Shown: positions 15,522 through 48,335, numbered from the stretch's first letter. The stretch is 64,000 nucleotides of DNA from Botryllus schlosseri (GCA_051294905.1 CM119371.1:30754001-30818000); one strand, 5' to 3'. Translations and numbers: made by a program. Notes: generated by a model from the sequence alone, not told the origin.

Positions 15522-15874
15522 GTCTAGGGGTATGATTCTCGCTTCGGGTGCGAGAGCTTCCGGGTTCAAACTCCTGACGAGCCTGTGCCACGATTGTAGT
15601 TTTTCAATTAACCACGATATCTATGAATCCAGGAGTCATTTCCGAATAAATTTTTTTAAAATAATTCAGACAACGCATCCGTCGGCTCGTTGGTTTAGCT
15701 AGGGGTATGATTTTCGCTTTGGGTGCTGAGAGGTCCCGGGTCCAAATCCCGGACGAGCCCGTGCCACCATTATAGTTTTTCATTAACCACGATATCGATG
15801 AATTAGGGAGTTATTTCCAAATAAAGCATTTCAAATAGTTCAGAAATTGCATCCGTCGGCTCGTTGGTCTAGGG

Positions 15875-17556
15875 CAGTGGTCCCCAACCTTTTTCGGTGT
15901 CGGGGCCAAATCTAGAACTTCAGAGTACGGTCGGGGCCGCACGAATACTAGAGCAATGAAACGGACCCAAAATAGTCATCAAAATATGAAAATTGGCATT
16001 GTTCCGATCAATCGCTCGAAGCCACTGTTATGGTCTTTGTGTAGCTGCGCTCCCATTGTTCAGAACAATCGACCTTTGGTGGCTATTTCGGAGCAGTTTT
16101 ATTGCCCTGGCGAGATTTCAACTCGTATTTTTAGAATCAGTACGATAGAAGCTTTCAAATTATTCGGTCGCTTCGGTCGTGAGCTGTAGGACTACCAATT
16201 ATGCTGCTTTCGGGGCCGTTTAGTGAGTCAGCATTTATTGCCTAAACGCGCGAAGCGCGAAAATTTTCTGTAATTCATAATTGAATCGGTCAACATGATC
16301 GGGAATCGCATGTATATTGCTATCAATTTTTATCCTCTCTCTGCTCACGTAATCAGTTTTACAGGTAGAGCCGCGAGGGAGGTCTGTTTGAAAAGGTAGG
16401 ACCCCTCAATAATAATTAAACATCTCCGGGCGTATATCCGTTGGCAGGAACGAAAAAGCACTTCGTGAGCCCCCCTCCCCCAAAAAACTTTGGTCTTGGA
16501 CTCCCATAGGGTGAAAAACCTACCCCTATCACCTTGTTCGCTTTTACCACGAAATTAGCTGTACCGTTAAGTGGGCCAGCGCGAGGCGCGAAATTTTCGA
16601 CAATTTATGATAAAATCGGTCAATATTATTGGGAATTGCATATATATTGCTATAAATTTCTTGTCCTTGCTGCTCACGTAATCATATTTACCGGTAGAGC
16701 TAAGTGAGGTGTCTTGGACACTGCAGAACCCGTTGGTATGACCTCGTAACATGATGTTATTTCGTAACCTGCTGTCTGCTATATATCAAACAATATAGAA
16801 TAGCCCAAACGTATGCTACTAAACTAAGAGGCGCACACAATTTCAAATTGGTATTTCTTCCCTGAAATATAATTTGTCCCTGCGGCATTATATGTGTCTT
16901 GTGTGGCTCAGATTGCCAAGACAGTATTGTGTATATATAACGAAGCTTCGGTCAGGATAAGGGCAGTCCTTTTCGGCCAAGGTTTCCTCGCTGCCAATCG
17001 TTCTGACACACTTCTTGGAGTCGCATGTTAAATGACGTAAAACTGAATATGTCTTGGTGCGTCGTGGCGCGGTAATGACAAACGCCGATACGACCATTTC
17101 GATAAATATGTTTTTTGGGGGGGGATGAGTACCCAAAAGTCAAGATACTTGGCAGCATGAAATCACGCCTACAGTAAAAAGATGCACAATTTTTAAAAAA
17201 ATACTCTATAATTTATACTTATTCACGAAATAATTTCGAGCCCCCTTCGAGCTCGCCCCTCCCCCAATTGGAGGGTGTGTCGTGCCGCAGTTATGGTCCT
17301 GTCTGTACCTACTGCTCGTTCAACTGGAAAGTTAGGGTACATTGCAGTGAAACAGCAGCGACGTAACGTTAGTAGTCTACTTACGACTATCCTGCAATCC
17401 TAATTAAAAACTCCAGACTCCAAGCCAAGTACGTGCATTTGATAAATGTAAAATGTTATTTTTGTCAATACTCGATTTCTTAATATTTTGTGGGGGCCGC
17501 AAGAAGGCTATCGGCGGGCCGCATGCGGCCCTCAGGGCCGCGGTTGGGAATCACTG
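15875..17556. mobile_element. Non-autonomous hAT element in tRNA-Pro(TGG)
   Basis: TIR CAGTGGTCCCCAACC / GGTTGGGAATCACTG; TSD GTCTAGGG at 15867-15874 and 17557-17564; empty paralogs at 30635 and 42313. Confidence 0.94.
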
Positions 17557-18250
17557 GTCTAGGGGTATGATTCTCGCTTTGGGTGCCCGAGGTCATGGGT
17601 TCAAATCCTGTACGAGCCCCACCGAGCTAACAGATTTTTTTTAATTTACCACGATATCTATGAAATCAGGAGTTATTTTCAAATAAAAATTTCCAAAATG
17701 ATTCAGACAATGAAACCATCGGCTCGTTGGTCTAGGGGTATGATTCTCGCTTAGGGTGCGAGAGGTCCCGGGATCAAATCCCGGACGAGCCCATGTCGAG
17801 ATTATCTTTTTTTAATTAACCCCTATATCTATGAATCCCGGAGTCATTTCCAAATAAAACATTTATGAATAGTTCAGAGAGCTCATCCATTGGCTCGTTG
17901 GTCTAGAGGTATGATTCTCGCCTAGGGTGAGAGAGGTCCCGGGTTCAAATCCCGGACGAGCCCGTGTCGAGCTAATACCTTTTTTAATTAACCACGATAT
18001 CTATGAATTCAGGAGTTATTTTCAAATAAAAATTTTCAAAATGATTCAGACAACGAAACCATCGGCTCGTTGGTCTAGGGGTATGATTCTCGCTTAGGGT
18101 GCGAGACGTCCCGGGTTCACACCCAGACGAGCCCGTGTCGAGATTACCTTTTTTTAATTAACCCCGATATCTATGAATCCAGGGGTCATTTCCAAATAAA
18201 ACATTTTTAAATAGTTCAGAAAGTGCATCCATCGGCTCGTTGGTCTAGGG

Positions 18251-46456: not shown

Positions 46457-46575
46457 GTGTCGAGATTATATATTTCTTTTAATCAACCCTGATATCTATG
46501 AATCCAGGAGTCATTTCCAAATAAAAGTTTCAAAAATAATTCAGGGAACGCACCCGACGGCTCGTTGGTCTAGAC

Positions 46576-47805
46576 CAGGGGTTCTCAGCCCTTTCTTGGC
46601 CGTGGCCCATTTTCCGGTTTGAAAATGTGCTGTGGCCCACCTCTTATCTTGGAATAATAATCCTGTTCAATGCGTGGTAATCGACTGCACCGATATGCCT
46701 ATTTCTCTAAAATATGCGCATTTTTCTCTTAATTTACTGATAGTATTTAAATGTAGCCCTTTCGGCCCATTCAATCGCGCGAAGCGCGACGAAAATTCTC
46801 AAGTCGAGGAAATATCCTCCAACAAACGACCAACGAAATAATCTTGGGCCCTCCGAGGTCCCGCAATCGGGAGTATGGGTGCAGCAGTTACTACCTTGCT
46901 AGATCATTGGCTGAAACCCCTGTGTATGTTATGATCGTCCGCTGCTCCATTCGCACCGCGAAACACAATGATCAAATCCATGCATTCACTGTGTGATTGG
47001 GATTTTAGTTCCACTATTGTGGGGAATAACATAATCATTCTGGGTCAGCTTCAAACAATTTATTGGGGTAGGCTACTACAGAGAAGTGGAGAAAGATTTT
47101 TTGATATGCATGCAGTAACACATCTTGTACCAAACCAACTGAAGTTGCGATGTCAGAATATTCAATCCAATGATACAATCAATTCATGTGACTCTTACAT
47201 TATGTACAATGATATCAGGGCGGACATTTTAAACCAACTCCAAATATTAATGCCATCCGCTAAATCCTCAATCCATTACGATTCGTGGCGGGGGTGCGGT
47301 ATACCTCCTCCAGAACAGCAATTATGGCTAATTGAATCTTACAGTAATACGACTTGCCTAAGTAGCCTACAGTAAATCAATACATCAACTACACTTCATT
47401 CCGAGTTTATTCCACACCCCTTTCAACGTCATGCGACATATTCCCCAGCCCCTGCGGGAATACTTGGTTATTTCAGCATTCCATCCTTCCAGTTATTATA
47501 TACTCAAAATTATTTTAGTTGTTAGCCGTAGGTTACCATAGCCAGTGGAAAAAGCCACCGTTTCTCCCCCCCGTTTTCAACTTGTATGCTGACTCCATAC
47601 GTGCCACTACGTCTCATCAGAGTCGGGCGAAAAGCTATACGTAGCCTACGTATAATTCGATAATATGAATAAATTTTTAGCGATTAACATAACAAATATA
47701 CCTAAACTTACAATAATTCTAAAATTTTTTAAATCGCTTTGTGGCCCACCTCAAATGCTCCTGTGGCCCACCAGTGGGCCATGGCCCACCCTTTGAGAAC
47801 CTCTG
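46576..47805. mobile_element. hAT MITE in a variant tRNA-Pro unit
   Basis: Ends CAGGGGTTCTCA / TGAGAACCTCTG; GTGGCCCA subterminal repeats; TSD GTCTAGAC at 46568-46575 and 47806-47813; empty paralog at 24101. Confidence 0.94.
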
Positions 47806-48335
47806 GTCTAGACGTATAATTCTCGCTTTGGGTGCAAGAGGTCCCAGGTTCAAATCCCGGACGAGCTCGTGTCGAGATTATAGTTATTTAATCAACCCTG
47901 ATTTTTTGACTTCAGGAGTCATTTCCAAATAAAACATTTTAAAATAGTTCAGAAAGTTCGTCCATCGGCTCGTTGGTCTAGGGGTATGAATCTCGCTTTG
48001 GGTGCGAGATGTCGCGGTTTCAAATCCCGGACGAGCCCGTGTCGAGATTATTGTTTTTTTAAATTAACCACGATATCTATGAATTCAGGAGTTATTTCCA
48101 ATTAATTTTTTTTTAAATAATTCAGACATCGCATCCGTCGGCTCATTGGTCTAGGCTTCTAGGGGTATGATTCTCGCTTTGGGTGCGAGAGGTTCCGGAT
48201 TCAAATCCCGGACGAGCCCGTGTCGAGATTATAGTTTTTTAATCAACCCTGATTTTTATAAATTCAGGAGTCATTTCCAAATAAAACATTTTTAAATAGT
48301 TCCGAAAGTGCATCCGTCGGCTCGTTGGTCTAGGG

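Follow-up and report, generated by a model that had tools for sequence, protein, structure and literature searches.

Probable excision scars at a recurrent hAT insertion site in a tRNA-Pro gene array of Botryllus schlosseri

A tandem array of tRNA-Pro units from Botryllus schlosseri has been entered repeatedly by hAT elements at one 8-bp target, and at least two of the partial target duplications found in it (F1 and F2 below) are likely to be scars of excision. The window, in which all coordinates are given, is the whole 64,000-nt stretch that was analysed (GCA_051294905.1 CM119371.1:30754001-30818000).

The tRNA-Pro array and its hAT occupants

757-48335, plus strand: tandem array of tRNA-Pro, 99 units of 171 bp, interrupted by elements

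Each 171-bp unit consists of a 72-nt tRNA-Pro gene or pseudogene and a spacer. The target, tRNA nt 10-17, falls within the A box and contains the palindrome CTAG; it is present in the array in 100 copies, 60 of them intact, 22 occupied, 12 with a shared deletion and 6 scarred. Background substitutions are frequent, at 0.86 per 14 nt, and a C at nt 17 (C17) is a standing variant, found at 8 of the 60 intact sites. All three common tRNA-Pro anticodons (AGG, CGG and TGG) are mixed within this one array, and the Leu(TAG) calls made by ARAGORN represent a mutated tRNA-Pro sublineage linked to the C17 variant.

The junctions of the elements fall without exception at nt 10-17 (21/21 on the left and 21/21 on the right). 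Identical 8-bp target site duplications (TSDs) flank 16 of the 20 elements that have both ends in the window, and as three variant 8-mers are among these, the duplication of the target must have arisen at insertion; the remaining 4 elements are hybrids, whose TSDs differ at one base. The elements (no strand assigned) are as follows:

2309-4234: element with identical 8-bp TSDs and a transposase remnant, containing the nested element 2679-3465
7303-8717: element with junctions at nt 10-17
9230-10429: element A, with a variant TSD that has A at nt 16
20228-21419, 25855-27046, 36329-37512 and 43855-45048: further full copies of element A, 95-97.6% alike
13638-15521: hybrid element, A for the left 650-660 nt and another element for the right part, unequal TSDs
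11459-13125, 28413-30298 and 40091-41976: further hybrids with the left part of A, unequal TSDs
15875-17556: element whose paralogous sites at 30644 and 42322 are empty and unscarred
18251-19714: element with junctions at nt 10-17
21589-22576: element C, with a copy at 45232-46221 (97.4%)
22935-23936: element whose paralogous site at 46394 is empty
24289-25160: element whose paralogous site at 47976 is empty
31340-35483: 4.1-kb element with a weak transposase-like match at 34443-34772; paralogous site at 43009 empty
37868-39408: element in a C17-variant unit, with the variant in both TSDs; paralogous site at 27394 empty
46576-47805: element with matching variant TSDs (A16, C17); paralogous site at 24110 empty
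48336-48350: left terminal inverted repeat (TIR) of the element at the array end

The full copies of element A were counted as one insertion, propagated with the array blocks, and the hybrids probably go back to a deletion between two adjacent insertions, which was afterwards copied with the block. By our count, after the block copies are collapsed, there have been ~14 independent insertions.

The TIRs are short and start with CAG(G/T)GG. The element at 2309-4234 retains the C-terminal part of a Buster-type transposase (3893-4108, minus strand), for which 51 of 55 candidates were ZBED5/SCAND3-like homologs (best E 5e-27); PF05699 is found on 8 of the 51 homolog rows, while the direct Pfam scan of the transposase remnants found nothing. 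A degraded match to transposase is present also at 38641-39228 in the element 37868-39408. No coding remnant was detected in elements other than these two and the 4.1-kb one, and no intact transposase was seen within the window. Judged by their sequence, the occupants are Buster/Charlie-type hATs of non-autonomous families, with transposase descent shown for one element. The first-pass annotation had referred to Ac/Tam3-type footprints; the elements themselves are of the Buster/Charlie and not of the Ac/Tam3 type.

Several other features of the window deserve mention. Elements with similar termini are present also outside the tRNA genes, and three hAT-like elements are nested in other elements, two of them (2679-3465 and 33010-33693) with near-matching 8-bp flanks and a central TA/CA, the third (23305-23618) with flanks that do not match. 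Both copies of element C contain a 42-bp tandem repeat (21803-21948 and 45446-45591). The array terminates at the left element junction (48319-48350), and since neither a right TIR with TSD nor a 3' tRNA half is found beyond 48350 in the window, this boundary suggests an adjacent deletion or rearrangement. Further downstream (52644-54188, minus strand) there is an uninterrupted frame of 514 codons with BTB and BACK domains, in which Pfam identifies no Kelch family.

Partial duplications of the target

Four partial duplications of the target had been reported in the first-pass annotation, and each motif was found at the following positions and nowhere else; a shared deletion is listed with them:

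22748-22762, plus strand: F1 (+7), left TSD (6 nt) followed by two P-nucleotides (AC) and the right TSD (7 nt)
28229-28242, plus strand: F2 (+6), left TSD (7 nt) followed by a C as complement base and the right TSD (6 nt)
48149-48164, plus strand: F3 (+8), 7 nt, CT and 7 nt, with both innermost bases replaced; CC expected
15693-15704, plus strand: F4 (+4), first copy, CTAG doubled with one C-to-T change
30470-30481, plus strand: F4, second copy
42148-42159, plus strand: F4, third copy
4556-4563, plus strand: 12-nt deletion, first of 12 copies, ending at the left edge of the target, with a 3-nt microhomology (GTC)

The three copies of F4 differ by a summed alignment distance of only 2-5 over 300 nt of flank, and therefore represent one event copied with its block, as previously proposed.

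The products of the hairpin model were enumerated for this target by the published rule, i.e. as a palindrome with the complement of the border base at its centre, and compared with tandem duplication as expected from slippage. The mismatches under the two models are 0 vs 2 for F1, 0 vs 1 for F2, 1 vs 2 for F3 and 1 vs 1 for F4, and an equally good fit to the hairpin model was obtained for 0.025%, 0.06%, 0.14% and 15% of random insertions, respectively (20,000 trials). The earlier interpretation of all four as hAT excision footprints with junction bases complementary to the flank thus stands for F1 and F2, where the complement is exact, and more weakly for F3, with its one mismatch, but not for F4, which parses as 6+6 nt with the C-to-T change and no P-base and is undiagnostic, fitting slippage equally well. 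For F1 there are equivalent parses, with joins at up to 4 nt of microhomology.

Perhaps, then, these sites have never been occupied, and duplications of 4-8 nt arose around the CTAG palindrome by slippage or unequal crossover, the odd bases being due to point changes or to conversion from C17 or A16-C17 variants? Apart from the palindrome itself, such an origin would be compatible with the variant 8-mers that exist in the array, with a background divergence that permits 1-2 changes in 15 nt, and with F4, for which either model has to invoke one and the same base change. However, the changed bases are the innermost ones and the predicted complements: slippage followed by random substitutions mimicked the hairpin product in only 0.0024 (F1), 0.056 (F2) and 0.010 (F3) of trials, and the product of the three values gives a joint chance of ~1e-6. 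Moreover, all seven paralogs of F2 (single-site and empty) carry G at nt 17, hence the C in F2 is new. A base of F3 may have been borrowed by conversion, because C17 stands in the array and the spacer type to the left of F3 frequently accompanies the C17 unit variant. The first 8 nt of F1 equal a variant 8-mer that is present elsewhere in the array, although the flanks of F1 are of another unit type.

The distribution of indels also bears on slippage. All 99 units (17,040 bp) were aligned to the consensus, and 10 indel classes of at least 4 nt were mapped, 7 insertions and 3 deletions. Four insertion classes are the scars, at nt 11-12, and three lie in an A/T run at nt 81 and 92, where they were counted as 2 lineages; the deletion classes cover nt 20-33, nt 162-170 and nt 169-9. 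With a binomial window of 10/171 at a site fixed beforehand by the elements, 4 of the 6 independent insertions are on target (p=1.6e-4), or 4 of 9 events with the deletions included (p=1.2e-3). The predicted clustering of insertions at nt 10-17 is thus borne out, the even distribution of similar duplications expected from slippage is not seen, and outside the A/T run large insertions are confined to the target. Slippage is accordingly improbable as the source of the scars. Two deletions outside the target lie no more than ~10 nt from it, one of 9 nt (nt 162-170) at 4387 and one of 14 nt (nt 20-33) just to the right of the element ending at 21419.

Another possibility to consider is a staggered (8-nt) attack by the transposase, in which integration fails and end joining or templated repair leaves a partial duplication with no stable insertion. 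It would agree with the lack, within the window, of a surely occupied paralog for any scar, as well as with the lack of P-bases in F4 and in the 12-nt deletion. Nevertheless, complement-centred bases come from flank hairpins formed at excision (PMC5873905), and F3 retains 7 of 8 nt on each side, which would require a filled-in TSD. We therefore regard such abortive attacks as very improbable. It is most improbable of all that F1-F3 are assembly or consensus errors of a repetitive region: each occurs in one copy in a single assembly, as an error might, but they are structured changes of 6-8 nt at one functional site, unlike homopolymer errors, three diverged blocks all carry F4, and each block has private substitutions, so copies have not been collapsed.

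Excision thus remains the preferred explanation, at least for F1 and F2. Excision may also have produced F4 and the 12-nt deletion, neither of which carries a diagnostic base. The 12 copies of the deletion are probably due to one event, possibly a microhomology-type excision scar, i.e. a fifth exit, or else an unrelated deletion. Three more specific origins were considered and rejected: F1 as a canonical scar of an A/B hybrid, whose TSDs are unequal (the sequence would fit, but the hybrid has other flanks), F3 as a join of a C17 unit and the T10 variant at 25677 (the right flanks differ), and the scars as remnants of element ends (the border G is absent, as judged by eye).

Site preference, array history and the proposed cycle

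The sites were scored against the target profile of human hATs, namely NTCTAGAN flanked by A/T bases at a distance of 2-3 nt from the TSD (PMC2836564, section 14). The target scores 9/10, and the 10 other TA sites of each unit score at most 6, therefore sequence preference suffices to explain the choice of site within the unit. Outside the array (35 kb), a score of at least 9 is reached by 12 of 2584 TA sites and 0/12 are occupied, a number too small to separate preference by sequence only from additional targeting. The terminal TG of the elements corresponds to tRNA nt 8-9, and the A box is rebuilt downstream in 20 of 21 cases; hence the site may retain Pol III factors, and the Pol III promoter may survive insertion. 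Right junctions at 4232-4244 and 22574-22586 are examples of the rebuilt A box.

The block segments that were measured are 97-99% alike, and at least six paralogous sites are occupied in one block copy and empty and unscarred in another. Insertion after block duplication is the simplest reading of these pairs, the alternative being a traceless loss of the element through conversion. Units that share one right-flank type are occupied by one element up to 756, by a different one up to 17556, and by none at 30644 and 42322; the left flank of the element ending at 756 is outside the window. The unit to the right of F1 shares four derived substitutions with the unit bordering element C in the sister block, which is one unit shorter; this fits one break repaired in two ways, but ordinary unequal crossover would account for it as well.

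An insertion-excision cycle had been proposed for this array. Its first half, repeated entry, is supported by the ~14 insertions and by the occupied/empty pairs, but the closing of the cycle is not: besides lacking surely occupied paralogs, the scars have on record never been re-entered, since scar-type flanks occur at 0/22 occupied sites, although the scars retain motif scores of 8-9.

We propose the following scenario. The tRNA-Pro nt 10-17 with its A/T flanks constitutes a near-perfect target for the Buster/Charlie hAT transposase, so several non-autonomous hAT families would accumulate in the amplified array as in a sink. Insertion duplicates the 8-mer, as is evident from the TSDs, and at times the element would later excise, i.e. 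the scarred sites would have been occupied formerly. By analogy with published work on hATs, the transposase would turn either flank into a hairpin with the complement of the border base at its centre; the host, whose enzymes are thought to open hAT hairpins (PMC5499845), would open these and end-join them, often at the CTAG microhomology. The expected outcome is partial duplications with complementary (P) bases, the pattern seen in F1, F2 and partly in F3. Unequal crossover or block duplication would then have produced the observed copies of occupied, empty and scarred units, and further exits may be hidden by repair from neighbouring units.

An exact search with the junction motif found no matches in viral contigs and two in metagenome contigs. 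One of the latter (L001) was dropped, as the match is at the contig end, with no 3' tRNA half, ARAGORN call or BLAST match to the window. The other (L002) is a cluster of tRNA-Pro(TGG) genes, taken to belong to another genome because its spacers are unrelated to those of the array. One of its four tRNA-Pro(TGG) copies contains, at nt 10-17, a 268-bp hAT MITE (interval 3133-3480) with the same TIR type and the same 8-bp TSD as in the array. The right end of this MITE is similar to the right end of element 2309-4234 of the window, at 82% over 139 nt, tRNA sequence included. Because tRNA-Pro is highly conserved and its sequence comes close to the one preferred by Buster/Charlie elements, hAT insertions may predictably concentrate there in other animals too, which would make tRNA arrays mosaics of pseudogenes; one independent case has been found. 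That tRNA-Pro nt 10-17 would serve Buster-type hATs of unrelated animals as a recurrent safe haven, in convergence with Dada and beyond what sequence preference provides, is doubtful.

If such a haven existed, the array would be a standing reservoir of insertions and excisions, and its scars would offer a natural in vivo footprint spectrum and an excision rate. As the sequence that preceded an insertion is not known in wild genomes, excision footprints are normally taken from engineered donors. In this array the preceding sequence is given by dozens of unhit copies, therefore the natural footprint spectrum and the ratio of exits to entries (~3-4 visible exits vs 14 entries) can be read directly.

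Comparison with known transposon systems

The closest experimental counterpart is TcBuster, a Buster-type hAT with an 8-bp nnnTAnnn TSD, whose excision leaves deletions and small flank-complementary insertions, for which hairpins and end joining are held responsible (Woodard et al. 2012, PMC3499496). Its products were obtained by excision from engineered plasmids in cultured cells, whereas those in the array are natural genomic products of many families in a multicopy host gene. Ac/Ds excision leaves deletions, and insertions that form a palindrome around the complement of the border base, often with microhomology joins (PMC5873905); in both respects, P-nucleotides and joins, its footprints are like the scars described here. 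Nonetheless, Ac/Ds belongs to the Ac clade, while the array elements have CAG(G/T)GG termini and remnants of Buster-type transposase.

The Charlie-related hAT and SPIN non-autonomous families are similar to the array elements in TIR types, target preference and outer A/T bases (PMC3014272, PMC2836564); the TIRs of Charlie-related hATs with NTCTAGAN TSDs from the anole are tabulated in PMC3014272 (Table 1). They differ in that the descriptions consulted do not place them in tRNA genes or tandem arrays. Dada elements (PMC8869645; also the subject of PMC3706591) are DNA transposons that insert in tRNA genes and frequently hit the A box (nt 8-13), with a specificity thought to derive from primary sequence, and the outcome is similar to that in the array. 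Dada is, however, a separate superfamily with TSDs of 6-7 bp, and the 8-bp TSDs at tRNA-Pro nt 10-17 together with the Buster-type remnant exclude a Dada identity for the array elements. No report of hATs within tRNA-Pro genes, or of scars in arrays of this type, came up in a literature search whose journal coverage was incomplete. The repair chemistry and the mechanism are thus already known from other hATs; what is unusual is their natural record at one repeated target.
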